Source: an uncultured bacterium
Lineage (GTDB): Bacteria > Arandabacterota > Arandabacteria > Arandabacterales > Arandabacteraceae
Assembly (NCBI GenBank): GCA_964356335.1
Contig: CAYHHI010000039.1
Location: 1 to 32,083 of the forward strand
DNA: 32,083 nucleotides
Direction: 5' to 3'
A program made the translations under genes and the position numbers. Positions 1,353 through 26,235 of the stretch are shown piece after piece. The notes beneath the pieces are model-generated. The model was not told the origin of the DNA. It worked only from the letters and a program-made list of their open reading frames with translations, and searched no databases. Within the stretch, counting starts at the first letter, position 1; the number at the start of each line of letters is the position of its first letter.

Positions 1353-1742
1353 ATGAAAAGGATGAGATCCCGTCTCTCAAGCCAGGCCGGCTTTACGCTT
1401 ATCGAGTTGATGGTCGTGGTGATAATCATCTCAATCCTCGTTGCGATGGCCATAGCAAACTACATAAGGATGCAGGAGCACGCCAAGAAGACCTCATGTG
1501 TTTCCAATCAGCGGAATATCTATCAGGCGGCGACCATCTACGCATCGGACCACAAGGTTGATGATGGAGAGATGGGTGTTGAGGATCTCCTCGCGGAAAG
1601 AGCTGTGCCCCGAGGCCTTTGCGAGTGTGCCTCAAGCAAGGACAGCAGCTTCGACGATTATACCATAGTCTGGCTTGACGGGCTTCCGCGCGAAGTCAAA
1701 TGCGATATCAAGGGTGACAAGCACCTCTGGCATCATCATTAG
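1353..1742 (+). CDS. prepilin-type N-terminal cleavage/methylation domain protein (type IV pilin or T2SS pseudopilin-like), orphan
   Basis: RBS GAAGGAAG before ATG 1353 (internal Met of the track ORF 1278..1742). Class III leader MKRMRSRLSSQAG followed by FTLIELMVVVIIISILVAMAIANY (G|FTLIE with Glu+5). Four Cys in the C-terminal half (possible disulfide D-region). Confidence 0.8.
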   Translation: MKRMRSRLSSQAGFTLIELMVVVIIISILVAMAIANYIRMQEHAKKTSCVSNQRNIYQAATIYASDHKVDDGEMGVEDLLAERAVPRGLCECASSKDSSFDDYTIVWLDGLPREVKCDIKGDKHLWHHH

Positions 1743-4700
1743 GATCCGCCCGCTTTCTGCCTGGCCTCAGTTATGTTCTTCTTTATGTCTGGGTTCCCTG
1801 GATTCAACTGAAGAGCTTTCTCCCAGATACGGACAGCTCTCTGGTACTCGCCTTTCTCGGCGAGTACGATTGCCAGGTTGTTCATGGCCTCGAGATGCGT
1901 GGGGTTGATCCTCAGGGTCTTCTCATAGTACTTCTGGCCTTTGTCCAAATCATTCTGAAGCAGCCAGGTAAATGCGATGGCGGCCAAGGCCTCGGCATTG
2001 TCGGGTGAGGCCTTGAGGACAAATTCCAGGTCGCGGCGTGCATCTTCGAGGAGGCCTCTCTGGATGAAGCAAAGGGCCCTCAAGTGGTGAGCCCTTGCAT
2101 TAAGGGGCTCCAAGGAGAGCACCTCGGCGACGGTCCTGCTTGCATCATCGGGGTTACCAAGGTCAAGTTCCCCCTCCGCCTCGAGGAGGAAAGCCGGAAC
2201 ATAGTCGGGATTGATCTCGATCGCCTTTCGCAGAAGGGCAACACAGGCAGCCGCATCATGAGTCCTCTCAAGGGTTGCCAGATTATAGAATGCCCGGTAG
2301 CTCTCGGGGTTTTCCTCCACGGCCCGTCTTGCTGCGGTTATGGCCTCCTCGAATCTGCCGCCCTCGGCCAGGGCTCGTGAGAAGGAAATGTAGAAGTCTG
2401 ACAATCTCAATCCAAAGATGCCGTTCTCGGGGCAATTGCTCTTGGCTGTCTCAAGATGGATGGCCGCCTCACGGAACTTGTGGTCTCTCGCAGCGACAAG
2501 TGACTTGAAATAGCCACGTCTCGCAGTCATACCCCTGTGCAGACTGTCGTAAGCCACGTCATACTCAACGGTGCCCTCGTCGAGATTGGCAATCATGGAC
2601 ACAGGCTCTTCGCTTGCCGAATCAAGCCCGAGGAGCGACTGGACCATATCTTGCCCCACAAGTTCCTTGGGTGTCCGGTAGAGGAGGGGAGAGGTATTCC
2701 TCGTGTTCATACGCACCTCACCCGCCCAGGCCAAAAGAGCTTCCCTACCCATCATATAGCATGTGAGCAGGCCGATATCATCTGTGATGCCGAGCCGCAG
2801 CAGGTCATCCTTGACGCCAGGTGCGGCGATTCTCCGCATCAGGGGCTCAGGCTGGATTTTCATGGGCTGCAGACTGGCGACAAGCAACAGTTGGGTTCCG
2901 CCTCCCCACCATAGACCCACATGCGGGAAATAGTAACTAAACTCCTTGGCGATTGATTTAAAGCCGTCTTCTGAGAGGTCGTCAAAGCTTACGACCTGCG
3001 AAACTATTCCACCCGGTCGAAGCCGGGCGCGGGCATTCCGCACGAATTCATCGGGGACCATGGGTTGCTGGCAGATTATCACGTCATACTGCTCCCTGGA
3101 TAGGAGGAGATAATTTGAGGGATCGCATGACAGGAGGCTGAGCCTTGCATCTTGGAGTGCCCCACGATTATAGAATGCGAAGTACCGAGAGGCTTTCACA
3201 ATCGCCGGCACGGGCTCGACGCAATCTATCTGGGTGCCCTCGTAAGCTTCGATTGAACTGATGGTTATCCCGGTGCCGAGTCCTGCGACCAGTACTCGCT
3301 TGGGGTCCCGGTGAAGGAGCATGGGGATGTGAGCGGTGAGCACCTGGGTTGTGACGTCTTCAGACGTGGAAGCGATGGTGCTGCCATTGACTCTCAGAAA
3401 GAGGGCGTCGGGTGATCTCAGAACGGAAATCGCCCGGTCGCGATCCTCTTCGTAGAAAATCACTTCTGCAGCTGAAAGCGCAGCTTTCAGATTCTTAAGA
3501 TCCAGGTACCTTTCCGGATGGATGTAGATGCCGCTGGTGATGATCCCTTTGTTCCAGACAGGTGCGGTGACGTTCAGGGCCAGGGAGATGACTACAAGAG
3601 CGGCCGCAAGCATGAGCCTTGACCAAAAACGTCTTTCCGAAGAAACGATATGCAGGGCACCTGCGACTATGGCAAGCCACGGAATCACCATCAGGGCTCT
3701 TCCCGTCGTGAGGCCAGACGTGGGCACTGCGAGGCTCGTGAGGAACGCAAGCAACGCACCCAAGATGACCACTGATGTTGTAAGTCCCAGCACCCTGGGG
3801 GACGTCGAGCGTCTTGAATCGATTACTCTAACCGCCAGTGGAAACGTGCTGCCCATCAAGAGACCGGGGAGGAAGATTACCAGGAAGCAAAGCGCGAAGT
3901 ATGCGAAGACCACACCATGCCACTCAGGGGACTGGAGACGCGGGGCGAGGCTGAAAAACCTCAAGAAAGCAAAGGGCAGATTGTTGACATAGAGAAATGG
4001 GATGAGCCAAACGATACCCGTGACAGCGGAGGTGGTGCCTAGCCAGTAAGGACCTTCTCTTGAGCTCCGGGCGAGCCTTGCTGATATGCCGGATCCTAAC
4101 GCAAGGGCGGCGAAATAGACAACGAGCGCCGCGGCTGCCATGTACACGGTTTTGCCTGCCACCTGGGAAAGCAAGCGCGCCCAGATGACCGCGCACACGA
4201 CGCCTGAGAAGATGTAAACAAGGTATGCGATAATGTGGAAGGACTGGCCGGCACGGAGAACTGCACCGTCCGGTTTTTCGCTTTCACCAGACGGCGATTG
4301 GTCTTCGTCAGGTTGAAGGCCATTCGATGCATGCTTACTGAGTATGGCAACAAAGCCCATGACAGAAATCAGAAGTGCTGCACTTCCGAGAGCACCTCTT
4401 GCGCCAATATAGGGCATGAGCGCAAAACCTGAGATCGCTCCCCCAGTCGACGCCCCTATACAAAGCATTGAGAAGAATCGATCGCCGGCTTGCGGGGCAT
4501 CCCCGTACCGTCCGAGCAGACTCCAGCCGAGGGAGAGCGTTGCTCCCAGGAGGAAGGCTGGGACAAAGAGCACAGCGAATACAAACACGGCACCGACCAG
4601 CGAAGACACCGTGGAGCCGTGAAAGCCCCCGCATACGGCGCTATAGGGGCCTTCAAGCCTCGAGAGGAGAAGGAGGGCCACAAATGCTGAGGCGCCCCCC

Positions 4701-4957
4701 CCGATTTGGAGGAAGCCAAAGGTCGTGAAAGATCTCGCTATCCTGTCCCCTCTTCGCCCGGCGTAGAGATTGCCCAGAAGCAAACCCAGAAGCAGGGCGC
4801 AGACGACACGAGCATCGTGCAGCGCCTGGCTCCCAAACACGGGTGGGAGCATGCTCGTCCAGGCCGATTGAAATGTGACGAGCGCGAAACCGCAAATCAG
4901 GATCGCCAGAAGCAAGTACGGTGTCGAACCAGATGTCTTTGATCTCAAAAGGTCCAC
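1739..4957 (-). CDS. large polytopic membrane protein with spermidine-synthase-like (polyamine aminopropyltransferase fold) domain and C-terminal TPR repeats
   Basis: 1072-aa ORF with GTG start preceded by GGAGGAG (5-nt spacer). About 14 hydrophobic helices in the N-terminal 600 aa. Central Rossmann/SpeE-like segment (VLVAGLGTGITISS...DVIICQ). C-terminal tandem TPR-like repeats (AEALAAIAF..., AMNNLAIVLAEKGEYQRAVRIWEKALQLNP). Confidence 0.85.
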   Translation of the reverse strand: MDLLRSKTSGSTPYLLLAILICGFALVTFQSAWTSMLPPVFGSQALHDARVVCALLLGLLLGNLYAGRRGDRIARSFTTFGFLQIGGGASAFVALLLLSRLEGPYSAVCGGFHGSTVSSLVGAVFVFAVLFVPAFLLGATLSLGWSLLGRYGDAPQAGDRFFSMLCIGASTGGAISGFALMPYIGARGALGSAALLISVMGFVAILSKHASNGLQPDEDQSPSGESEKPDGAVLRAGQSFHIIAYLVYIFSGVVCAVIWARLLSQVAGKTVYMAAAALVVYFAALALGSGISARLARSSREGPYWLGTTSAVTGIVWLIPFLYVNNLPFAFLRFFSLAPRLQSPEWHGVVFAYFALCFLVIFLPGLLMGSTFPLAVRVIDSRRSTSPRVLGLTTSVVILGALLAFLTSLAVPTSGLTTGRALMVIPWLAIVAGALHIVSSERRFWSRLMLAAALVVISLALNVTAPVWNKGIITSGIYIHPERYLDLKNLKAALSAAEVIFYEEDRDRAISVLRSPDALFLRVNGSTIASTSEDVTTQVLTAHIPMLLHRDPKRVLVAGLGTGITISSIEAYEGTQIDCVEPVPAIVKASRYFAFYNRGALQDARLSLLSCDPSNYLLLSREQYDVIICQQPMVPDEFVRNARARLRPGGIVSQVVSFDDLSEDGFKSIAKEFSYYFPHVGLWWGGGTQLLLVASLQPMKIQPEPLMRRIAAPGVKDDLLRLGITDDIGLLTCYMMGREALLAWAGEVRMNTRNTSPLLYRTPKELVGQDMVQSLLGLDSASEEPVSMIANLDEGTVEYDVAYDSLHRGMTARRGYFKSLVAARDHKFREAAIHLETAKSNCPENGIFGLRLSDFYISFSRALAEGGRFEEAITAARRAVEENPESYRAFYNLATLERTHDAAACVALLRKAIEINPDYVPAFLLEAEGELDLGNPDDASRTVAEVLSLEPLNARAHHLRALCFIQRGLLEDARRDLEFVLKASPDNAEALAAIAFTWLLQNDLDKGQKYYEKTLRINPTHLEAMNNLAIVLAEKGEYQRAVRIWEKALQLNPGNPDIKKNITEARQKAGGS

Positions 4958-5221: not shown

Positions 5222-6583
5222 TTAAACGGCAGTTGCCACTGACTTCTTGGCTTCGTCTTCCTTCTTTATGTGGTCTCTGAGGCTTTCCGCGTATCTGTCC
5301 ATGTCTGGAGCCAGGCTGGTCACAAGCGTCTCAGCTCCAGGATGGGTCGGGTGGGCACCGGTCTCTTTGATCACCTCCCGCAGGATGTGCGGATTGTCTA
5401 TGAGCATGCAGGGCATGCGGTGATCCTGGTTAAAGGGTTGCTTGGCCTGGATGCTCTTGAAGAGCGGCGAGTTGATGACGTCCTTGAGTTTCCTCTGCTT
5501 AATGTTGTCGACCGCGAAATGGCAGAACACGCAAGGCTCGACATCGCCATGGCAATTGATGTGGAGATATCTTCTGCCGCCCGCAATGCAGCCCCCGACG
5601 TAATCGCCGTCATTCCAGAAATCGGCGATAAAGATCGGTCGGGTGGCCCTGAACTCCCGCACGCGCTGGCCGACTTTAAGCCTCTGCTCGGGTGTGGGCA
5701 TCAGGGTCACATCAGGCTTCCTTCCGATGGGGATGTAAGTGAAGACCCAACCCAGGAAGCAGCCCCGCTCGACCCATTCGTCGATGAACTCATCGCTTGT
5801 GACGAAATCCGCATTCTTGGAGGTAACTGTCAGGGAGAAACCGAACAGGCCCTTCCGCTTATTGAGGCTTTCCATTGCCTGGGTTATCTTCTTGAAGGTT
5901 CCCTCGCCTCTCCGCTCGTCGGTCTCTTTCTCGAAACCCTCCACACTGATACACGGGATCACATTGCCCAGGTTCACCAGTTTCTCGCACATGGCATCAT
6001 CCAGCAGCGTGCCATTGGTATAGACCTGGAAAATGCAATCGTCGTGCTTCTGGAAGATATCCAGGAGGCCATCCCACACGAACGGCTCACCGCCAGAAAC
6101 GATATAGAGGTAGATGCCGAGTTCCTTCCCTTCCGTAATGATCCTGTCGAAAACTTCGAATGGAAGATCTTCATTTTTTGTATAATTGCCGGCGTAACAT
6201 CCGTAGCACTTAAGATTGCATCTCATGGTGGGACTGACAACCAGAAGGGAGGGTGGGTAGAACCCTTCGCTCTTGGCGATCCGGTGCCTCTTGTTGGGGG
6301 CGATAAGCCCTTCCTTGACGATCAAGTTGCGCAAGAACTTGTTGCGGGCCTTCGGGTTTATCTCCCGCAGGAACCTCAGAGCAAGCTTGCCGCCGGGGTG
6401 GCCGGCCTCGAATTTCTGACGCGCGCTCCGTATGACCCCGGACCAGTACTCGTTCGTGGTTATCCTTTCCACGACGGATACTACCCTGAGGAGTGCATCC
6501 TCGGAGCCATGGGAGGCTATGCGCGCCATCTTATCGAAGGCGCTCTCGATCGTTTTCTCTTCGATGCGGTCTACTATGTTCAC
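5222..6583 (-). CDS. radical SAM enzyme with Cys-rich C-terminal region (possible auxiliary Fe-S cluster) and ~130-aa N-terminal helical extension; function unknown
   Basis: CNLKCYGCY (CX3CX2C) and VSGGEPF motifs. C-terminal Cys pattern GGCIAGGRRYLHINCHGDVEPCVFCHF consistent with an auxiliary 4Fe-4S domain. Start reassigned to GTG 6583 (GGAGGTGA SD 7 nt upstream; promoter at 6634-6661 lies downstream of the track ATG at 6667). Confidence 0.85.
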   Translation of the reverse strand: MNIVDRIEEKTIESAFDKMARIASHGSEDALLRVVSVVERITTNEYWSGVIRSARQKFEAGHPGGKLALRFLREINPKARNKFLRNLIVKEGLIAPNKRHRIAKSEGFYPPSLLVVSPTMRCNLKCYGCYAGNYTKNEDLPFEVFDRIITEGKELGIYLYIVSGGEPFVWDGLLDIFQKHDDCIFQVYTNGTLLDDAMCEKLVNLGNVIPCISVEGFEKETDERRGEGTFKKITQAMESLNKRKGLFGFSLTVTSKNADFVTSDEFIDEWVERGCFLGWVFTYIPIGRKPDVTLMPTPEQRLKVGQRVREFRATRPIFIADFWNDGDYVGGCIAGGRRYLHINCHGDVEPCVFCHFAVDNIKQRKLKDVINSPLFKSIQAKQPFNQDHRMPCMLIDNPHILREVIKETGAHPTHPGAETLVTSLAPDMDRYAESLRDHIKKEDEAKKSVATAV

Positions 6584-6633
6584 ATTATCACCTCCTCTCC
6601 TTCTCAAAATCCGGACATGAAAACTCGCTTCGA

Positions 6634-6661
6634 ATGATACAGCAGTCCTCTTGGAAGTCAA
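6634..6661 (-). promoter_or_regulatory. sigma70-like promoter for radical SAM gene: -35 TTGACT (6661..6656), 16-nt spacer, -10 TATCAT (6639..6634)
   Basis: Read on minus strand; 5/6 matches at each hexamer. Positioned about 50 nt upstream of GTG 6583. Confidence 0.5.
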
Positions 6662-6772
6662 CCTCAAAATGAGGTCTTACCCACAAACTGTGTTGGTGCC
6701 GGCGGAGTTGACGGGGCACGGCAAACCTGGGCGTGTGCATGATGGCCGCCCGGCTCTATCGACCTCGCTGGC

Positions 6773-7795: not shown

Positions 7796-8017
7796 GGGGC
7801 TTACTCTTTCAGACTGGTACTAGCATACCACAGGCATGTAGCAAAAGTCAAGGTTTATCATAAATGCGGAGTGCGGCATTGAAGCTTGTCTCGCGAAGTG
7901 GTAAGGTCTCATTCGTACCGTGGAGGGTCGCACAGGGTCGCTACGACGGGCAAGATTGCCCACAGGTATCCTGGGAAGTCGACCAGGGCCAGCAAGATAG
8001 CTAGGGCATTGGGGATC

Positions 8018-9796
8018 ATGAATCGCAAGCACACGCTTACCTTGGTCGCCCTCTTAGGCTTTTATTGTATTTCTTACGTGATTCTCACATATCCCTTGAT
8101 ATTGAGATTCGGATCATGCTTCATCGGGGACAAATGGGATGCGTGCATCTTCGCATGGAATGTCTATAACTTCACGGACAGCATTCACCACGGCGTGAAT
8201 CCCTTCTTCACGGACAAGATATTCTATCCGTTCGGGGCCAGCCTCATCCTGCACGTATATGCTCCTCTATATGGCATCGTCGGACTCTTGACGGGCAATT
8301 GCGGCCTTGCCCTGAATGTCACCACATTCGCAAGTTTCGTGCTCTCAGGAATCGGGGCTTACCTCTTGTGCAACTACTATGTGAGGAATGGTCCGATATC
8401 AGCGCTCGCGGGTTTTGTTTTCGCCTATTGTCCATACAAGCTGGTTCATCTTCACGGGCACTACGATCTCATCCTGACCGCCGGCATCCCCTTCTTCATC
8501 CTCTTCTTTGTCAAGTCCTTCAAACAGACAGAGGGTCACAGGCTACCGGAGCTGGCCGATAGAAGGTCCTTCACAACCGCATTGGGGTTCTTCGGCCTCA
8601 CCGTGCTTTCGTGCTACTACTATGCCTTCTTCCTGATCGTCTTTGTCATTCTGTACTTTCTTTACTGGGGTGCCCGCGTATACGATATCAATCTATCCAA
8701 GAAGAAAGCCCTCAGGTACATCCTTATCGTCATCATTTTCTCAACCCTGATAGACAACATTTTCAAGTTCATTCACTTGGACAGGACCGGCGTAGCTACA
8801 AACGGCTTGGCCGGAAGCAGCGACCTATTTGCATTTCTTGTTCCGTCCGCCTATAGCAGATTCTTGGCATTCGATGCGGTCCGCCACATCAAGTTCGATA
8901 TCTTCCGGGTGAATACGGTCGAGACCACCGTATATATCGGCTACACGATCCTCGTCTTCGCCATAGCCTATTTTGTGACAAAGCAACATCGGAACGAAAA
9001 GCCTGAGACCAAGATGCTGTCATACATGGTAGGATGCTTCCTTGTTCTTGCGATGCCCAAAGTCCGCATCCTGGATGAGACCATTTTCAGTCTTCCGACC
9101 GCTCTCGTCCACTACATCCCATTGATCAACAATTTCAGGGCGCCCTACAGGTATTCGATAATGATAATGCTCTTCCTGCCGATCCTATCCGGTCTCTTTC
9201 TCAAAAGGTATGTTCTCGCGTCGATACCAAGACGTCTGCACTTTCTCTTCGTATCAGTTCTGATTCTTTTTCTCTTCATAGAATACATGCAGAAGGACTA
9301 TCCGATGGTCTGCAGGTATGAGGTGCCGAGGATTTACGACCAGCTCGCATCTAAGGAGGATGGCGTCCTATTGGAGATCCCATTTGGACTGAGAGATGGG
9401 TTCAGGAGACTGGGAGACGAAAGGACGGTCGAGCTGTACTACCAGACGATCCATCACAAGAAGATCCTGGCGGGAGTGATATCACGGCGCAGCCGGCGGC
9501 TTTTCAATCGCTTCCGGCAGCAGCCGTTGGCCTGGGACCTTATCAAAATGCAGGAAGACTCGTCATGGACGCCGGCAGCCCCTAATCGGGAAGAGGTGAT
9601 TGGTTTCCTGAACACATTCAACGTCAGGTACATACTGGTTCACCCAGAATACAGAAATGGCCGCATCGAACACCTGATTGAAGGCGCTTTCTCGGATTAC
9701 ATCACGGAGAGAGCCGAGATTGATGGATTTGCTCTGCTGACCCTCGGGCACGAGCCCCTGGGCTCTCGGGAATCGAATTCGCGGGGGCAGTTATAG
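8018..9796 (+). CDS. polytopic integral membrane protein, GT-C-fold glycosyltransferase-like (unassigned family); lower GC than flanks
   Basis: At least 12 hydrophobic helices with a C-terminal soluble domain of about 150 aa. Start moved to ATG 8018 (MNRKHTLTLVALLG...) because the 44-aa upstream extension begins with TTG and is non-hydrophobic. Codon usage visibly AT-richer (TTT/ATT/TAT/AAA) than neighbours. Confidence 0.75.
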   Translation: MNRKHTLTLVALLGFYCISYVILTYPLILRFGSCFIGDKWDACIFAWNVYNFTDSIHHGVNPFFTDKIFYPFGASLILHVYAPLYGIVGLLTGNCGLALNVTTFASFVLSGIGAYLLCNYYVRNGPISALAGFVFAYCPYKLVHLHGHYDLILTAGIPFFILFFVKSFKQTEGHRLPELADRRSFTTALGFFGLTVLSCYYYAFFLIVFVILYFLYWGARVYDINLSKKKALRYILIVIIFSTLIDNIFKFIHLDRTGVATNGLAGSSDLFAFLVPSAYSRFLAFDAVRHIKFDIFRVNTVETTVYIGYTILVFAIAYFVTKQHRNEKPETKMLSYMVGCFLVLAMPKVRILDETIFSLPTALVHYIPLINNFRAPYRYSIMIMLFLPILSGLFLKRYVLASIPRRLHFLFVSVLILFLFIEYMQKDYPMVCRYEVPRIYDQLASKEDGVLLEIPFGLRDGFRRLGDERTVELYYQTIHHKKILAGVISRRSRRLFNRFRQQPLAWDLIKMQEDSSWTPAAPNREEVIGFLNTFNVRYILVHPEYRNGRIEHLIEGAFSDYITERAEIDGFALLTLGHEPLGSRESNSRGQL

Positions 9797-13758: not shown

Positions 13759-13834
13759 GTCGCGGTAGCTCAGCTGGTAGAGCACAGGACTGAAAATCCT
13801 GGTGTCCCCGGTTCGATTCCGGGCCGCGACACCA
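13759..13834 (+). tRNA. tRNA-Phe (anticodon GAA), CCA encoded
   Basis: Cloverleaf folds by eye: acceptor GTCGCGG/CCGCGAC, D stem GCTC/GAGC, anticodon stem CAGGA/TCCTG with loop CTGAAAA, T stem CCCGG/CCGGG with TTCGATT, 3' ACCA. Confidence 0.9.
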
Positions 13835-13841
13835 CCTTAAC

Positions 13842-13914
13842 GCTGGTGTAGCTCAGCTGGTAGAGCAGCGCACTCGTAATGCGCAGGTCAGCGGTTCGAT
13901 TCCGCTCACCAGCT
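13842..13914 (+). tRNA. tRNA-Thr (anticodon CGT), no encoded CCA
   Basis: Acceptor GCTGGTG/CACCAGC, D arm GCTCAGCTGGTAGAGC, anticodon stem GCGCA/TGCGC with loop CTCGTAA, T arm AGCGGTTCGATTCCGCT, discriminator T. Confidence 0.9.
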
Positions 13915-13919
13915 TCATT

Positions 13920-16673
13920 TTGAGGCCAAGCAATTTGATTCGCGTTGCTTTCTTCATACTGCTGGGTGTGGTTGCTGCCTTTGCTGTCCTCTCTGTGAAG
14001 ATCATAGGCGAAGACGAGTTATGGCTCGTCGGCGAGGGCGACCAGGTAAGAGAGCTGCAAGGCGGCGTGAACCTCGTAAGGCCGTTTGCCGCGATAAGAC
14101 GATATGACCTCAGGGCGCGGTACGCCATGACCGGCGAGGCCGGACTCCGCATCCCTCTCAAGAAGGGTGAGAGTGCCAATCTTGATTGTATTCTTGAGGC
14201 GCGCCTTGAGAGAGACAAGATCAAGGCTCTGGACCGCGAATACGAGGGGAGGATACTCGAGAGGCTCCTCAGGCCCCTCCTCGGGAGAGAAATCACAGCG
14301 GCCCTGCGAGCCAGTCCCGACCCCAAGGAAGTCTCCCTTGATTCAACAGGCGCCGGTGTTAGAGCACGCCTCAATGCGGCGACCGAGCCCCTGGGCATCG
14401 AGATCACCTCGGTGGATCTCAAGAATCTGGAGGTGTCGAGTGCCCTGCCGCCGGGGCTCACCCGGACCGAGGGCCTGAAGGTCTTCATCCTGGGTTTTGA
14501 CGGCTACGACTGGATGCTGGCCGATCTTATCTCTGAGACGCATAGCCTCCCCAACATCGACCGAATCAGGCGCCAGGGCTCCTGGGGGAATCTGCGGTCG
14601 ATTGAGCCCCTTGTCTCTCCGCTTATCTGGACGACGATTGCAACCGGAGTGACCCCGGACATCCACGGCATCACCGACTTCCTGGTCAAGGATGAGAGGA
14701 CAGGAGCAGAAATCCCGGCGACAAGCACGATGCGGAGGGTTCCTGCGATATGGGACATCGCCTCTTTGCTGGGGCTCCGCTCCGGCTTCGTGGGGTGGCT
14801 TGCGACCTATCCTGCCGAGGAGGTCGAGGGCTTCATGGTAAGCGACCGGGTTGCCTACCATATGTTCGATCCGGGGTGGCATGGCGGCAGAGAAGAGACT
14901 CCCGCCGAGGGCCTCACTTACCCGCCGGAGCTCGTGCGGGAAATCCGGCCGCTATTTGTCGAACCCGAAGATGTAGCCAAGGAACTCGCCATTTATATAA
15001 ATGGGCCTGTGGGAAACCTCAAGAAACAATTCGATCCTCTCGACCCTGTGAGCAACTTGAGGCTCATCATCTCAGGCTACGCTACCTATGAGGGCATAGT
15101 GAAGAAGTTATATCCTGCTTCAAGACCCGATCTGGCTGGCGTCTATTTTGAGTTCACAGACAGTGCCTGCCACCTTTTCATGAGATACATGGCGCCCCCA
15201 ATGCTTGGAGTCACCCGCGAAGAGGCTGAGCGGTACGGTGACGGAATTGCCGCCACATATCTTGAGGCAGACCGAATCTTGGGCGAGGTCATCGAGATGA
15301 TGGACGACAAGACGGTGCTCATAGTTCTTTCCGACCATGGGTTCAAATCGGGCGACATGCGGCCGATGAGCGACTCGAGGATTGGTATCGGGCAGGCGAT
15401 CTCCTGGCACAGGCTGAATGGCGCGATCGCCCTCTATGGCCCAAGCATCAAGCGGGGATACCAGATCGGTGATGCAAGTGTCCTGGACATTGCGCCCACC
15501 GTGCTTCATATCGCAGGACTTCCCGTTGATAAGAAAATGCCGGGCAGGGTGCTCTCTGATGTGCTTGAAGATTCCTGGGTGAAGGCCCATCCCGTGCGGT
15601 TCACAGCCCAATACGATTCCCTGATCACTGGCGAGGGCGGGGTTTCAGGCGGCCCTTCACCTGCCGATCAGGCGCTCAAGGACAAGCTTCAGTCGCTTGG
15701 ATACGTTGCCGGCGGCAATGCTTCGCTGGTCAACATGGCCAACTTCTATCACAAGAACGGGCGCTTCGCCGAGGCCATCGAAATATGGAAGAAGCTGGTC
15801 GAGCAAGATGCGAATGACATGGGCGCAAGGACCGGACTGAGTAACGCTTACTTCGAAGTGGGCAAGGTTGACAGCGCGATCGCCGGGCTCCACGCGGTGC
15901 TCCATAGGGATGCCCGCAACATGGAGGCCCTGAGGAGTCTGGCCACCGTCCTCGTGCGGCAGGGCAAGGGGCAAGAGGCCTTGAGACTTGCTGATGACGC
16001 GCTCAAGATTGACCCAGGCGATGGGGATTCGCATTTCAATCGGGGTCTCGCTCTGGAGCTCGTCGGTAAAAGGGAGGAAGCCGCCGAGGAGTACCGGCAG
16101 GCAGTGCGCTTCGCTCCTGACCTCGCGGAGCCCTATGCCAATCTCGCCCAGATGTATACGGACAAGGGCCAGGCGAAAGATGCTCTTGCCGCCGCCGAGA
16201 AAGCGGTTGATCTCGCGCCAGGCAAACCCGAGATGCATTGTGTTCTAGGCCAGGCATTTGAACTCAATGGCAGGCCCGAAGAGGCCCTCAACCATTACAT
16301 GACGTCGCTCAGGTTGGATGCCCATTTTGCTCCTGCATATATCGGTGCATGCGGCGTGCTGCTTGCGCAGGCTAAAACCGATAGCGCCCTCGCGCTTTCC
16401 GATAGGGCCCTCAAAACATCATCGCAGTACGGCCAGTATCTGCATAACCTGAAGGGCATGGCTCATCTTGCCCGGCGCGAGACTGGGAAGGCAGCAGAGG
16501 AGTTCGAGGCTGCCCTTCGTGCTGACGGCACCTTCTTACCCGCACGCATCAATCTGGCCAGAGTCTATATCGCCCAGGGGAAGACTGCAGAAGCCAAGCG
16601 AGAGCTCCAGGCTGTTCTCGCGGTCCAACCGGCCAACCAAGAGGCACGTGCCATGCTTCAGGGTCTGCGGTAG
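13920..16673 (+). CDS. membrane-anchored multidomain protein: N-terminal TM helix + SPFH/band-7 (HflC-like) domain + type I phosphodiesterase/nucleotide pyrophosphatase (alkaline-phosphatase superfamily) domain + C-terminal TPR repeats
   Basis: TM RVAFFILLGVVAAFAVLSV. HflC-like segments (LRIPLKKGES..., ARLNAATEPLGIEITSVDLKNLEV). NPP-family motifs VFILGFDGYDW, SPLIWTTIATGVTPDIHGI (Thr nucleophile), LSDHGF. At least 7 TPR-like repeats in the last ~330 aa. Start codon uncertain (TTG 13920 or TTG 13935) and abuts tRNA-Thr. Confidence 0.85.
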   Translation: MRPSNLIRVAFFILLGVVAAFAVLSVKIIGEDELWLVGEGDQVRELQGGVNLVRPFAAIRRYDLRARYAMTGEAGLRIPLKKGESANLDCILEARLERDKIKALDREYEGRILERLLRPLLGREITAALRASPDPKEVSLDSTGAGVRARLNAATEPLGIEITSVDLKNLEVSSALPPGLTRTEGLKVFILGFDGYDWMLADLISETHSLPNIDRIRRQGSWGNLRSIEPLVSPLIWTTIATGVTPDIHGITDFLVKDERTGAEIPATSTMRRVPAIWDIASLLGLRSGFVGWLATYPAEEVEGFMVSDRVAYHMFDPGWHGGREETPAEGLTYPPELVREIRPLFVEPEDVAKELAIYINGPVGNLKKQFDPLDPVSNLRLIISGYATYEGIVKKLYPASRPDLAGVYFEFTDSACHLFMRYMAPPMLGVTREEAERYGDGIAATYLEADRILGEVIEMMDDKTVLIVLSDHGFKSGDMRPMSDSRIGIGQAISWHRLNGAIALYGPSIKRGYQIGDASVLDIAPTVLHIAGLPVDKKMPGRVLSDVLEDSWVKAHPVRFTAQYDSLITGEGGVSGGPSPADQALKDKLQSLGYVAGGNASLVNMANFYHKNGRFAEAIEIWKKLVEQDANDMGARTGLSNAYFEVGKVDSAIAGLHAVLHRDARNMEALRSLATVLVRQGKGQEALRLADDALKIDPGDGDSHFNRGLALELVGKREEAAEEYRQAVRFAPDLAEPYANLAQMYTDKGQAKDALAAAEKAVDLAPGKPEMHCVLGQAFELNGRPEEALNHYMTSLRLDAHFAPAYIGACGVLLAQAKTDSALALSDRALKTSSQYGQYLHNLKGMAHLARRETGKAAEEFEAALRADGTFLPARINLARVYIAQGKTAEAKRELQAVLAVQPANQEARAMLQGLR

Positions 16674-17731: not shown

Positions 17732-18181
17732 TTGCGACTGAAAGTGAGTTTCATTGGTTTTTCGGGGTCGAGGGCGAGGAGCGTCATAGAGTCAATTGAG
17801 CAAGCCTCGTCGCTTTCGCTCGAGGCGACAGTCACCAAGGATGCACGCAGTTGTGAGGAAGGTCTTGCAGGCGGGTTTGATGCCGTATTCCTCACGGCCG
17901 AAGTGGGTTACAGGTGCTTGAGCCTCGTCGTGGGCAAGATCCGAAGGGAGAACAAGCGGATTCCGATTGTTCTCACCTATGGTGCGGAGCCGAACGGTAA
18001 GGCATTCGAGCTTGCATCGAAATACGATTGCTGGCTCTTCAGTGAGATGGACCGCCTGAAGAGGGGACTGACTCCCCAGGAGGTCGGAGAGGCGCTCAGG
18101 GCGAGGCAAGAAGATGATAAGATCAAATCACGCCTCATGGAGGTCTCACTCCGCTCAGGTCCCTGCTCCACCGGCGACTAA
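17732..18181 (+). CDS. hypothetical protein with degenerate receiver (CheY-like) fold
   Basis: TTG start 20 nt after the previous stop. beta-alpha pattern with DAVFLTAEVG and IPIVLTYG resembling receiver strands 3 and 4, but lacks the N-terminal acidic pair. Co-directional with the CphA-N-like gene. Confidence 0.5.
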   Translation: MRLKVSFIGFSGSRARSVIESIEQASSLSLEATVTKDARSCEEGLAGGFDAVFLTAEVGYRCLSLVVGKIRRENKRIPIVLTYGAEPNGKAFELASKYDCWLFSEMDRLKRGLTPQEVGEALRARQEDDKIKSRLMEVSLRSGPCSTGD

Positions 18182-20037
18182 GGCAGGCGGTGCCTGAGAA
18201 AATCGATCAGGTTGGTTTTTGTGTTGGTGGACGCCTTTCCATCGAGCAAATCCTGGACATACGCATCGAGATAGGAAGTACTTATCCTCTGAGCTTCGAG
18301 AATTCTTCTTGCCGCCTCGTACGAAGCAACGAAGAATGGGTCCCTCTCAAGACAGTCAAGATAGGCGGTGAAGGCTTGAAGCCTATTGCCTTCCTCGTCT
18401 TCGATCGCACCGATCTGGAAATAGGTCCCTGCGGCGGAAGGGTCCAGGCTGAGCGCATGCTGGGCGAGCCTTCGCGCCTCCGGTCGGTTTCCGGCGAGCC
18501 TCTCCACATAGGCCTTGTTTGCTGTGATCGCCGGCATCTCGTACCTGGAAATGCCGAGGAAATCCACGTTTGAGAGGACGCCCGCAGCGAGAACGACGCC
18601 ACAGGACAGAGCCAGTTTCGGCAAGTCCCTTGACGCAGTGTATCGGAGCAGCATCTCCACGCCATAGGCGGCGAGAGGGATAAGAAACACCACGCCCGGA
18701 AGTCTGAAGCGCTCGCAGACGAAGAAGCCAATACCGACTGCGAAGAAACTTGCGAAGCCCAACACCAGGATGAGAGCCCTGCGATTTGCTCCGAGGACGC
18801 TCACAATGCCGGCAGCGGCAAGGGGAAAAATGATACCAAAATTCAAGGCCGGCAAGAAGAGCCGCTTCCATGCCGATCTGCGCTCGGCTATATCGGCATT
18901 GTTATTGATCTGGGTTCGGGATACTGAGATGAGGGCCTTTCTGCCCAAGAGCCTGAGCCAGCGGCCGGGCTCGCTCGTCGCGAAGCGGATTGCCTGGTCC
19001 GCGAAAAAATCCGAACGCTGTTTGCCCGAAAGCCGCAGCCTGTCTGCTTCTATCCTTACGCGGTTCGCTTCCCCGAACCTGAAGGGATCCATGCCATCGC
19101 TCGCCCGGTTGTTCCCGACGAAGAGATTTACCCCGAAGCTTGATGTGACCGGGATCGCGTCACCCGATATGAGATAATTGTGAGCGAGGCTTGCAAGAAT
19201 GGGCACAAGGAAGCCCGCAATCAGGGCCATAGCCCCTATGAATCTCCGGCCCTTTTCGAAGAGAAGATTGAGCACGAGCAAGCCCGCCATCACGGTTGCA
19301 CCGCTCCACATCAGAGCGCTCACGGCGAACATGGTGCCGCTCGCGGCCAGGTTCTGCATGCGGTGCCGCCGAAGCCAGCTTCGAGCACCCAAGAAGATGG
19401 CAGCCTCGCCCGCCGCAAGTACCGTGAAGAACGCGATGCCTGCCCAGTACAGGTTGGCAGCATACGGCAAGGATTTCCCCTGGAGGAGACCTGCAAGATT
19501 CCTCAAACCCGGGGTCGCATACATAAGAGCCAGAACGCCAGCAAGGCCAAGCGCAGGCACAAAAACGTGTGATGTTTCGGGTCCATCACGTTCCATGAAT
19601 AACAGGGTTCCGACCAGCATGAAAGTCATGAAGATGGTGGCAGGAACGATCTCACCGGCGAAATAGTAAAAGCTCCAGTAGAAAGTCATGCCGAAACCAG
19701 CGGCCAGAGCAGTCCAATTCGAGAAGAGCCGCCGTGAAATCCGGCCCAAGAGGAGGACGTTCAGGGAAAGAAATACGCCCTGACAGACTGCGACCATCAG
19801 CTTGCTCCAACCGGAAAGCCAATAGAAAAGCCCCACAAATGCCGGGTAGAGCGCGCTCAGGAAAAAGGGTTGACCCGCAGGAATCCCCCTGAGGAGTTGC
19901 TTTGCCTCGAGGTCGTAGACCAGGGGATTTGCGACAAGATACTTAAAGAAAGGCTGGCTTCGCGTCTGGCTGACGTAGATCAGGAAGAACCCAAAGGCAA
20001 GGAGCGGCGGTAGGCAAAAGAGCCACCTGTTTTTCAT
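18178..20037 (-). CDS. GT-C-fold membrane glycosyltransferase (GT39/ArnT/DUF2723-like) with C-terminal TPR domain
   Basis: 619 aa. About 11 TM helices in the N-terminal 480 aa. C-terminal TPR-like repeats (AQHALSLDPSAAGTYFQIGAIEDEEGNRLQAFTAYLDCLERDP). Architecture typical of PMT/DUF2723 proteins. Confidence 0.75.
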   Translation of the reverse strand: MKNRWLFCLPPLLAFGFFLIYVSQTRSQPFFKYLVANPLVYDLEAKQLLRGIPAGQPFFLSALYPAFVGLFYWLSGWSKLMVAVCQGVFLSLNVLLLGRISRRLFSNWTALAAGFGMTFYWSFYYFAGEIVPATIFMTFMLVGTLLFMERDGPETSHVFVPALGLAGVLALMYATPGLRNLAGLLQGKSLPYAANLYWAGIAFFTVLAAGEAAIFLGARSWLRRHRMQNLAASGTMFAVSALMWSGATVMAGLLVLNLLFEKGRRFIGAMALIAGFLVPILASLAHNYLISGDAIPVTSSFGVNLFVGNNRASDGMDPFRFGEANRVRIEADRLRLSGKQRSDFFADQAIRFATSEPGRWLRLLGRKALISVSRTQINNNADIAERRSAWKRLFLPALNFGIIFPLAAAGIVSVLGANRRALILVLGFASFFAVGIGFFVCERFRLPGVVFLIPLAAYGVEMLLRYTASRDLPKLALSCGVVLAAGVLSNVDFLGISRYEMPAITANKAYVERLAGNRPEARRLAQHALSLDPSAAGTYFQIGAIEDEEGNRLQAFTAYLDCLERDPFFVASYEAARRILEAQRISTSYLDAYVQDLLDGKASTNTKTNLIDFLRHRLP

Positions 20038-20189: not shown

Positions 20190-20244
20190 GGATTTACATC
20201 ACCTATAATTGGGGAAAGTGCGGCTTTGTGCCGAGGAGTGCAGT

Positions 20245-23476: not shown

Positions 23477-23869
23477 TTGGAAAAGTGGAAGATAGAATCG
23501 GCTGATGCTCCACAGGCCCTCGGCCCATATAGCCAGGGAATAGCTTCTCGTATAGGCACCTACATTTTCGTTTCGGGACAGATCGGCATTGACCCTGCGA
23601 CTGGCTCACTGGTCGGAGACATGATTGCGGCACAGACCGAGCGGGCCCTTAAGAACGTGCTCTCAATAGTCGAGACGGCCGGCGGAAGCAAGAACTCCAT
23701 AGTCAAGACAACGGTATATCTCAGACGGCTTGAGGATTTCGCGGCCATGAATGAAGTCTATTCGAAGATCTTGAGTGCGCCCTATCCTGCGCGGGCATGC
23801 GTAGGGGTGGCCGATCTTCCCAAGGGAGCTCTGGTTGAAATAGAGGCAATCGCGGTTCTTGAGGGGTGA
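23477..23869 (+). CDS. ridA: RidA/YjgF-family reactive-intermediate deaminase
   Basis: 130 aa. APQALGPYSQG..., VFVSGQIGIDP, ...ARACVGVADLPKGALVEIEAIA - canonical RidA motifs. Confidence 0.9.
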   Translation: MEKWKIESADAPQALGPYSQGIASRIGTYIFVSGQIGIDPATGSLVGDMIAAQTERALKNVLSIVETAGGSKNSIVKTTVYLRRLEDFAAMNEVYSKILSAPYPARACVGVADLPKGALVEIEAIAVLEG

Positions 23870-23901
23870 CGGTGGGCACGGCAAGATCAGACGGGAAGGG
23901 T

Positions 23902-24948
23902 ATGACAAAGAAGGGTATCCGGCTGACCCAGATGGTCAAGTGTGCGGGTTGAGCATCCAAGATAGGTCCGGGTGACCTGCACAAGATCCTGAGCGGACTC
24001 AAACTCGAGAGGAGCCCTAATCTCATCGTGGGCAGTAACACCCTCGATGACGCGGCCGTATATCGTCTCGCACCCCATCTTGCGCTGGTGTCCACGGTTG
24101 ATTTTTTCACCCCGGTCGTGGATAGCCCCATTGCCTTCGGCAGGATAGCCGCGACCAATGCCATGAGTGACATATATGCGATGGGTGGAAGACCCATTCT
24201 TGCCTTGAACATACTCTGCTTTTCGGAAGAACAAGTTCCCAACGAGATCGTGCGCCGGATCTTGAAGGGCGGCGAGGAGAAGGTGAGGGAGGCAGGAGCT
24301 TTCCTGGGCGGCGGCCATTCGATCCAGGACAAGGAACTGAAGTATGGCTTATGTGTTACAGGCATTGTGAGGCCCGATCGGGTCGTGCGGAACTCAGGGG
24401 CGAGAGTAGGCGACACGCTGATTCTAACCAAACCGCTTGGCATCGGGCTCATGACGACGGGCATGAAGCATGGACTGCTCAAGGCTTCGGCGATTCGCAA
24501 GGTGACCCGCGTGATGGAAGACTTGAACTGGCGTGCATCCCAGGCCATGATGAAGGTAAGAGCAAATGCCTGTACGGACATAACGGGCTTTGGTCTCCTC
24601 GGGCACGCGCTTGAGGTTGCCGAGGCAAGCAGAGTTGCGCTTGAGATTGACTTTGCCAGAGTTCCCGTCATGAGCGAAGCCTACGATATGCTCGAGGCGG
24701 AAGCCATACCAGGCGGGCTCTGGGCCAATAAGGATTTCGTGCGCTCCAGCGTCACCTCAAAGCAGGTGGCGGATCGCGAGCTCAACATCCTGTGTGATCC
24801 CCAGACCTCGGGAGGGCTGCTCATCTCTGTTGATAGCACCAAGGCAGACAGGCTCATGACCCTCCTCGTGCGAGCCGGAGTCCGCGCGGCGAGGCCCGTC
24901 GGAAAAGTGCTTGCAAAAGGTGAGGGGCATATTATAGTTAAGAAGTGA
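23902..24948 (+). CDS. selD: selenide, water dikinase (selenophosphate synthetase), selenocysteine-containing: in-frame TGA at 23950-23952
   Basis: ATG 23902 is in frame with the track ORF 24028..24948. The upstream translation MTKKGIRLTQMVKCAGU*ASKIGPGDL matches the SelD N-terminus (E. coli IRLTQYSHGAGCGCKI), with TGA at the Cys/Sec position. Downstream AIR-synthase-like fold (DDAAVY, ATNAMSDIYAMGG). Confidence 0.85.
23958..23991 (+). promoter_or_regulatory. candidate bacterial SECIS stem-loop 6 nt downstream of the selD UGA
   Basis: Outer stem CAAGAT/ATCCTG (5 of 6 pairs). Inner stem AGGTC/GACCT with apical loop CGGGU about 17-21 nt after the UGA. Confidence 0.4.
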
Positions 24949-24962
24949 CAATGCGAGAGCGG

Positions 24963-25059
24963 GGGAATGGATGGGTTCTGGTGGACCTCAAGGACTTCAA
25001 ATCCTCTGTCGGGTGCTCATAACATCCGAGGTGGGTTCGATTCCCACACGTTCCCGCCA
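24963..25059 (+). tRNA. selC: tRNA-Sec (anticodon TCA), about 97 nt, GCCA 3' end
   Basis: Hand fold: acceptor GGGAATG(G)/(A)CGTTCCC (7 bp + terminal mismatch). 6-bp D stem GGGTTC/GGACCT with 4-nt loop TGGT. Anticodon loop CTTCAAA identical to E. coli selC. Long variable arm (CGGGTG/CATCCG stem). T arm GTGGG-TTCGATT-CCCAC. Discriminator G + CCA. Sits 15 nt after selD. Confidence 0.65.
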
Positions 25060-25074
25060 TAACGGGGGTACAAG

Positions 25075-25584
25075 TTGAAGCCTGGCTTGGTCTTTCTCTT
25101 GAGTGGGATAGCGATTCTCTTTCTTGCCTCCTCGCTGATGGCGGACGATCGAAGTCACGAGATCGACAAGTCCGATTTCCCCGACACCTCCTCAGTCACA
25201 CCCGGCTCCTTCGTGGGCATCCGTCCGGGCTTCAGCCTCGAAGAAGTGCCGAAGCTCAAGCATTCTCCGATGAAGAGCGTCCTCTTCTCTGCCGTTGTCC
25301 CTGGCTTGGGGCAGGCAGATAACGGCAGATGGGCAAAGGCCTCTGCCTTCGTCGTCGTAGGTTCGCTTCTTCTTTCGAAGATTGCTGTCGAATCAGACAG
25401 GGCGGATAGGTATCTCCACCTTGCGAGGAATGGCCCCATCGAGGAGTTCGATGCGAACTACCACGACTACTCCAGCCATTTCGACAGAAGAGACAGATAC
25501 GTCTGGTGGGCTGTCGCTTTCTGGATCTACAACATGTTCGACGCTTACATAGACGGTCATCTCTTCGGCTTCTCACAGCAGTAG
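25075..25584 (+). CDS. secreted/membrane protein, DUF5683-like
   Basis: TTG start with GGGGGT SD. Signal peptide. Motif SAVVPGLGQADNGRWAKASAFVVVGSLLL resembles the SAxxPGxGQ-xxxW(K) core of a family I recall as DUF5683 and as concentrated in Bacteroidota/FCB-group lineages (family name and taxonomic association from memory). Confidence 0.6.
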   Translation: MKPGLVFLLSGIAILFLASSLMADDRSHEIDKSDFPDTSSVTPGSFVGIRPGFSLEEVPKLKHSPMKSVLFSAVVPGLGQADNGRWAKASAFVVVGSLLLSKIAVESDRADRYLHLARNGPIEEFDANYHDYSSHFDRRDRYVWWAVAFWIYNMFDAYIDGHLFGFSQQ

Positions 25585-25623
25585 GCAATCCTTTCTCACG
25601 ACAACTACCAAGGGAGGCTTCAA

Positions 25624-26235
25624 ATGGTGGCGCAGAAGTCCGGCAAAAAGGCCAAGAAGGACACTCTGAAAGAATGGCTCAAGTCGATCATTATTGCGCT
25701 CGTCCTGGCGCTCTTGACGCGAGCAACAGTCGTTCAGGCCTTCAGAATACCGACATCGTCAATGGAAGAAACGCTTCTGGTCGGAGATTTTCTCCTCGTC
25801 AATAAGTTCATCTATGGCTCCAAGATACCCTTTACCGAAATCAGACTCCCCAAGGTGAGAGCGCCGAAGCGGGGCGACATCATAGTTTTCAGGCATCCCA
25901 CCGAGGGCAAGGATTTCATCAAGCGGTGCATCGGGCTTCCGGGAGACACGATTGAGTTGAGGAATGATGTGGTTTACGTGAATGGCGCCGCTCAGAAGGA
26001 ACCCTATAAGACCTTGCGCGGCTTCGGAGGCCAGATGTCCAACTTCGGCCCCGTCGTTGTGCCGGAAGGCAATATCTTCATGATGGGAGACAACAGGCAC
26101 AACAGCTATGACAGCCGTGCGTGGGGGGCCCTGGACATGCACTACATCAAGGGCAAAGCCATGGTGATGTATTTCTCGTGGAATAAGCAGACGCACCTGC
26201 CAAGGTGGACAAGGATAGGCAAGCTGATTCACTGA
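25624..26235 (+). CDS. lepB: signal peptidase I
   Basis: GGGAGG SD. N-terminal TM anchor. Catalytic Ser box PTSSMEETL, Lys box KRGDIIVFRHP, box E GDNRHNSYDSRAWG. Confidence 0.9.
   Translation: MVAQKSGKKAKKDTLKEWLKSIIIALVLALLTRATVVQAFRIPTSSMEETLLVGDFLLVNKFIYGSKIPFTEIRLPKVRAPKRGDIIVFRHPTEGKDFIKRCIGLPGDTIELRNDVVYVNGAAQKEPYKTLRGFGGQMSNFGPVVVPEGNIFMMGDNRHNSYDSRAWGALDMHYIKGKAMVMYFSWNKQTHLPRWTRIGKLIH

Follow-up and report, generated by a model that had tools for sequence, protein, structure and literature searches.

The stretch of DNA analysed here (32,083 nucleotides, hereafter the window) carries, all on the forward strand and separated by short gaps, a row of genes in the order glmM (archaeal-type model), glmS, ridA, selD, selC, a gene for a DUF5683-family membrane protein, lepB, lepA and hemW. 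Between the stop codon of selD (24946–24948) and the TTG start at 25075 lies a gap of 126 bases, which is occupied by a tRNA gene flanked by 14 and 15 nt (Table 1). ARAGORN calls this gene as tRNA-SeC, with the anticodon tca at position 35, and the Rfam family tRNA-Sec (RF01852) covers it from 24963 to 25055 over the full length of the model (1–91 of 91), with 71.7 bits (E = 5e-13; gathering score 47). In a permissive Rfam scan of the region 23800–25300, tRNA-Sec is the sole significant family (E > 1 for the other matches), and it is also the tRNA-Sec model that is retained within the tRNA clan for this locus. The original prediction, made from the sequence alone, had placed a tRNA-Sec of about 97 nt in the 126-bp gap and had proposed a covariance-model search as a check; both the position and the length are borne out, and the score is well above the threshold. 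In contrast, its warning that tRNA-Sec often escapes tRNA scanners is not borne out at this locus: two ordinary tools found selC readily and with no special settings, so that the annotation is correct but routine.

Table 1. Features of the selD–selC locus, with positions in the window and, for parts of the tRNA, numbering from its first nucleotide.
Feature	Position in window	Strand	Description	Basis
selD (selenide, water dikinase)	23902..24948	+	348 codons including the Sec codon	TIGR00476, NF002098
In-frame TGA of selD	23950-23952	+	codon 17, in the active-site motif KCAG-U-ASKIGPGDL	translation
SECIS-like hairpin	23964..23978	+	AGGUC-CGGGU-GACCU, 5-bp stem, 11 nt after the UGA	read in the sequence
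Promoter-like TTGCAA-16 nt-TATAGT	24911..24938	+	within the selD 3' end; 24 nt separate it from the start of the tRNA	
selC (tRNA-Sec)	24963..25059	+	97 nt including the encoded CCA	ARAGORN, Rfam RF01852, covariation
selC acceptor stem	24963-24969 with 25049-25055		tRNA positions 1-7 / 87-93; 7 standard pairs including U6.G88	
selC eighth acceptor position	24970 / 25048		G8 opposite A86; non-standard pair	
selC acceptor-D linker			A9-U10; 2 nt	
selC D arm	24973-24988		11-16 / 21-26; 6-bp stem GGGUUC/GGACCU, 4-nt loop UGGU	
selC anticodon arm	24990-25006		stem 29-32 / 40-43, 4 Watson-Crick pairs; loop 33-39	
selC anticodon stem top	24990 / 25006 (A28.C44)		A28.C44 and C27.U45 above the 4 Watson-Crick pairs	
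selC anticodon TCA	24997..24999	+	UCA, reads UGA; in the 7-nt loop CUUCAAA (24995-25001)	
selC extra arm	25009-25029		47-53 / 61-67; 7-bp stem, 7-nt loop	
selC linker between extra arm and T stem			G68	
selC T arm	25031-25047		69-73 / 81-85; 5 bp (25031-35 with 25043-47), loop UUCGAUU	
selC discriminator and tail	G25056		G94 (G73), then CCA	
DUF5683-family membrane protein gene	25075..25584	+	TTG start 15 nt past the tRNA, GGGGGT ahead	PF18935, 43.7 bits

Several other features of the window were recorded along the way. Two further tRNA genes, tRNA-Phe(GAA) and tRNA-Thr(CGU), stand 7 nt apart at 13759–13914 (+), each scoring about 72 bits on the Rfam tRNA model. The phosphoglucosamine mutase gene at 20209–21603 matches the archaeal-type model TIGR03990 (499 bits for a cut-off of 439) and its score on the bacterial glmM model stays under the cut-off (235 for 447 bits). 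Two ORFs, of 636 aa at 7886–9796 (+) and 619 aa at 18178–20037 (–), are devoid of any NCBIfam or significant Pfam match, the second having a sub-threshold TPR match. The product of 1739–4957 (–; 1072 aa) combines a spermidine-synthase-like domain with C-terminal TPR repeats, and that of 13920–16673 (+; 917 aa) an SPFH/Band 7 domain, a type I phosphodiesterase domain and TPR repeats. Finally, a radical SAM/SPASM gene (5222–6667, –) is overlapped by an antisense ORF of 455 aa (5270–6637, +), family matches being found for the minus-strand product only.

All the hallmarks listed in the original prediction, i.e., a UCA anticodon in the same CUUCAAA loop as in E. coli, a D stem of 6 bp closed by a loop of 4 nt, a long extra arm and a GCCA end, can be read in the sequence. 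The proposed cloverleaf thus stands in each of its listed details, but it has to be completed by two departures that had gone unmentioned, G8.A86 and A28.C44. Eight residues (25048–25055) separate the T stem from G25056, seven of them in Watson-Crick or GU pairs and the eighth in the G.A juxtaposition, and it is this number of residues between T stem and discriminator that sets the bacterial 8+5 tRNA-Sec apart from 7/5 tRNAs (PMC5330540). According to Itoh et al. (2013, PMC3711452), the nucleotides of the base triple C15, G20a, G48 show full conservation among bacterial tRNA-Sec, where the extra stem has 6–9 bp; the three nucleotides are present in selC (C24978, G24983 and G25030), as are the D-/T-loop partners U16/U59 and G19/C56, and the 7-bp stem of its extra arm falls inside the published range. 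Across an alignment of 18 tRNA-Sec, the G48 equivalent and the discriminator G73 (G25056 in the window) are invariant, C15 and G20a are nearly invariant, and the anticodon loop CUUCAAA varies at its last base alone. The window features that we tested agree with a canonical bacterial tRNA-Sec, save for the eighth acceptor pair, which is not of the Watson-Crick type; selA and selB are absent from the window.

For comparison with E. coli, we used a selC reference sequence that is 100% identical to the annotated tRNA-Sec of E. coli genomes. The window tRNA shares with it the UCA anticodon in an identical loop, the eight acceptor-helix positions and 5-bp T stem, the 2-nt linker between acceptor and D stems, the 6-bp D stem with its 4-nt YGGU loop, the long extra arm, G73 and the encoded CCA. 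Nevertheless, the two are only 53.6% identical in sequence, E. coli has C-G and the window tRNA G.A as eighth acceptor pair, the loop of the extra arm is short in E. coli and has 7 nt in the window, and the anticodon stem of the window tRNA is topped by A.C, a further difference from E. coli. In that species, selC stands alone and SelD carries Cys instead of Sec. With the crystal structure of the Aquifex aeolicus tRNA-Sec (PMC3711452), the window copy has in common the residue counts of the 8+5 fold, the nucleotides of the C15:G20a:G48 triple, the D loop U16-G18-G19-U20, the T-loop partners U59 and C56 and an extra stem in the 6–9 bp range. It differs from the Aquifex tRNA in that no nucleotide is bulged out of its D or anticodon stem, its acceptor-D linker is AU rather than UU, and its anticodon stem consists of four Watson-Crick pairs with A.C and C.U in addition, instead of 6 bp.

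The gene immediately upstream of selC encodes a selenide, water dikinase. Its reading starts at the ATG in 23902, preceded by GGAAGG, and its product, searched with C in place of U, reaches 384.7 bits on TIGR00476 (cut-off 125) and 350 bits on NF002098, likewise above the cut-off. The original prediction had described this selD as Sec-containing, and an in-frame TGA, the only one between 23902 and 24948, is indeed found within its active-site motif. The Sec/Cys position of SelD is a TGA in 67 of the 80 loci from genomes and, when the window and 159 fetched loci are taken together, in 139 of 160 sequences, the other 21 having Cys codons. The SECIS-like hairpin downstream of the UGA is identical in three relatives (L001, L081 and L082), and its stem co-varies in distant loci, e.g., AAGUCC/GGACUU in L031. 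Over the 33 nt after the UGA, the mean folding energy is −9.7 kcal/mol for Sec forms against −3.4 for Cys forms (Mann-Whitney p = 9e-10), in a comparison uncontrolled for G+C. The minimum free energy (MFE) fold of the 61 nt following the UGA in the window misses the hairpin and is unremarkable (z = +0.5); similarly, the single-sequence fold of selC is no more stable than shuffled sequences (z = −1.5), as is usual for tRNAs. Since single-sequence thermodynamics is uninformative for both segments, we relied on covariation and comparison instead. Judging from the in-frame UGA and the conserved, co-varying hairpin downstream, the SelD of the window is a selenoprotein, as in most of its relatives. 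As in other Sec-containing SelD with an internal bacterial SECIS, it combines an active-site UGA with a short hairpin bearing a G-rich loop, and we see no notable difference from these systems, the window hairpin being short (5 bp). In a scan of the window for ORFs reading through TGA, we recovered selD and trivial same-frame adjacent genes, and no other convincing selenoprotein gene. Among the fetched loci, L039 has a Cys-form selD (TGC) with a strong hairpin at the SECIS position (GGGUCC-GGC-GGACCU, −11.1 kcal/mol, at about 6000–6040), which may point to a recent change from Sec to Cys.

The fold of selC was examined comparatively by surveying 80 selD loci of species-representative genomes and 80 from metagenomes with ARAGORN and a covariance model (R1). 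This survey yielded 18 tRNA-Sec genes (window copy excluded), which, along with the window copy and an identical contig (L161), score between 87 and 108 bits on R1, while true tRNA-Ser genes at other loci reach 29–44 bits. Because R1 and ARAGORN return exactly the same set in the 80 genome loci, no tRNA-Sec was missed there by ARAGORN. When the hand-drawn cloverleaf was imposed on nine sequences, 97.4% of the cells were paired and 16 of the 30 pairs showed compensatory changes; none of 500 shuffles was equally good, and controls with a slid structure had 42–54% of their cells paired. All six pairs of the D stem are kept in 9/9 sequences, three of them with compensatory changes, and in the extra arm such changes affect five of the seven pairs. 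With 18 sequences, RNAalifold recovered the same cloverleaf independently (22 of 29 pairs compensatory).

The two unusual juxtapositions were followed in the alignment of 18 tRNA-Sec (A3), i.e., 17 non-E. coli sequences and that of E. coli. At 8:86, G.A is found in 16 of these 17 non-E. coli sequences, which belong to several phyla, L001 having C.A and E. coli C-G, and A86 is common to all 17. The pair 28:44 is A.C in the window, L001 and L081, A-U in L083, G.U in L141 and mostly C-G elsewhere. Both departures being common to relatives, they are best seen as lineage features and are unlikely to represent decay or defects. Where the selC genes of relatives differ from that of the window, pairing is kept, as in the replacement of U6.G88 by U6-A88 or of A28.C44 by A28-U44. 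The 3' end is more variable: CCA is encoded in the window, L001 and L083, and the tRNA-Sec of L081 (1781–1877), L154 (5013–5109) and L159 (1556–1652) are devoid of it, with TT or AA after the discriminator.

The selD–selC order is kept in close relatives, a check that the original prediction had called for. In all three close relatives in which the contig extends past selD (L001, L081 and L083), selC lies 1–21 nt downstream of a TGA-containing selD, and the tRNA is 91–97% identical to the window copy for a SelD identity of 65–68%. In the closest genome locus (L001, 66% SelD identity), selC follows selD by 1 nt within the same order of nine genes, from glmM to hemW; the distance is 21 nt in the metagenome contig L081 (68%) and 13 nt in the metagenome contig L083 (65%). 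A DUF5683-family gene is again the downstream neighbour in L001 and L081. L082 (82% SelD identity) ends inside selD and was left out of this comparison of selC positions. Further away, L141 (45% SelD identity, 87% tRNA identity) keeps glmS-selD-selC. Over the whole survey, selC falls within the fetched flanks at 18 of 160 selD loci: directly downstream of selD in six (L001, L081, L083, L141, L154, L159), directly upstream in six (L005, L007, L018, L038, L092, L121), about 4.3 kb downstream in three (L035, L066, L075) and 3.4 kb upstream in one (L085), the remaining two entering the total only. In L035, one of the three loci with the 4.3-kb spacing, a family search confirmed the order selD-selA-selB. 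Within the lineage, the selD–selC arrangement is thus conserved, and comparable ones recur elsewhere. A physical link between selC and genes of the Sec machinery is shared with selABC operons and selD-selA-selB-selC clusters, from which the window differs in linking selD and selC only, amid unrelated housekeeping genes; clustering of selC with sel genes has already been published (PMC5330540, PMC1794560). Family scans of the large ORFs of the 32-kb window found neither selA nor selB, the sole SelB-like match coming from LepA, whose GTPase domain scores 71 bits for a cut-off of 242. The "compact selenium module" of the original prediction therefore holds as a statement of position, limited to selD and selC, which may also be coupled in function, e.g., through a shared transcript.

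The two non-canonical juxtapositions, G8.A86 and A28.C44, and an MFE no better than that of shuffles could be taken as signs of a tRNA-Sec pseudogene in decay, or of the degenerate remains of a tRNA-Ser/Leu-like gene that merely resemble selC. We regard this as very improbable and largely refuted, given a tRNA-Sec score that exceeds the Rfam gathering score by 25 bits, a tRNA that stays 91–97% conserved, with differences that keep the pairing, where SelD is only 65–68% identical, and an adjoining selD that requires UGA decoding. Moreover, the G.A juxtaposition at 8:86 is lineage-wide, as seen above, and neither the retention of the tRNA-Sec model within its clan nor the low scores of real tRNA-Ser genes on R1 favours a tRNA-Ser/Leu origin, a point on which the original prediction had asked for a check. 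Allo-tRNA and selC*-type tRNA-Cys with a UCA anticodon are classes described in the literature. A tRNA of this kind, resembling tRNA-Sec without serving Sec, would insert Ser or Cys at UGA, and the UCA anticodon and long extra arm, which are common to such tRNAs, as well as the lack of selA and selB in the window, would fit with it. Here, however, several traits of canonical bacterial tRNA-Sec argue against it, namely a 3' acceptor strand of eight residues combined with a 5-bp T stem, a 6-bp/4-nt D arm, G73 and the C15/G20a/G48 nucleotides (PMC3711452, PMC5330540); in addition, the adjoining selD has a UGA followed by a SECIS-like hairpin, and the same type of tRNA occurs in a complete selD-selA-selB-selC cluster (L035). 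Hence, there is only a slight chance that the gene serves an amino acid other than Sec.

According to a third reading, selC would mainly be an integration site marking the edge of a mobile island, as in enterobacteria. Its appeal comes from general knowledge, selC being a classic insertion site of genomic islands in E. coli. Yet, the last 20 nt of the tRNA have no second copy in the window when up to 4 mismatches are allowed, no integrase was seen in family scans of its large ORFs, and the flanks are made of housekeeping genes (glmM, glmS, ridA and selD on one side, lepB, lepA and hemW on the other) that keep the same order in L001. The reading of the locus as a genomic island with an attachment site was rejected on the absence of a repeat of the tRNA end in the window and on these syntenic flanks, and we give it practically no weight. 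It is instead very likely, from sequence and comparative evidence, that 24963–25059 is a functional bacterial selC, separated by 14 nt from the stop codon of the Sec-containing selD that precedes it, on the chromosome of an uncultured Gram-negative bacterium.

The way in which such a gene would work follows the established bacterial Sec pathway. SerRS would charge the tRNA with serine, using its long extra arm and G73, SelA would convert Ser to Sec on the tRNA with selenophosphate provided by SelD, and SelB would bring the Sec-tRNA to UGA codons with a SECIS hairpin downstream, among them codon 17 of the neighbouring selD; for this, the genome must carry selA and selB outside the window. Within the tightly packed same-strand array, selC would be transcribed either along with selD or from a promoter in the 3' end of selD, and the tRNA would then be released from the transcript by RNase P and by 3' processing or trimming. 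Considering the flanking gaps of 14 and 15 nt and a scan of 23500–26000 in which no terminator-like site was found on the plus strand, selC is probably made from a polycistronic transcript with selD. The promoter-like sequence at 24911–24938 is a possible, if weakly indicated, selC promoter: a scan with a sigma-70-like consensus found one site for 1.1 expected by chance, and its hexamers are kept in L001, L081 and L083, but within coding sequence.

Translation of selD needs Sec-tRNA-Sec at codon 17, so that co-transcription would create a self-reinforcing circuit. The complete proposal, in which selD and selC form one transcription unit, the tRNA-Sec is cut from the 3' end of the selD mRNA within such a circuit, and G8.A86 perhaps contributes to the exclusion of EF-Tu, is tentative, and we would sooner doubt it than adopt it as it stands. 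The last element, namely that the conserved eighth pair G8.A86 might help to exclude EF-Tu, is speculation. If selD and selC are indeed co-transcribed, the selenophosphate synthetase and its tRNA would rise and fall together, both depending on the selenium supply.

Overall, the present locus adds little beyond a good annotation: tRNA-Sec genes, Sec-containing SelD and the grouping of selC with other sel genes were known before. The very tight linkage of selD and selC (1–21 nt in the lineage) may reflect co-transcription and autoregulation. For the organism, a probable annotation error in selD is corrected, since automatic gene calling would truncate the gene at the TGA (the mechanical ORF starts only at 24028). 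More broadly, the presence of selC points to this uncultured lineage as one that decodes selenocysteine, and other UGA-containing genes in the same genome may be selenoproteins.
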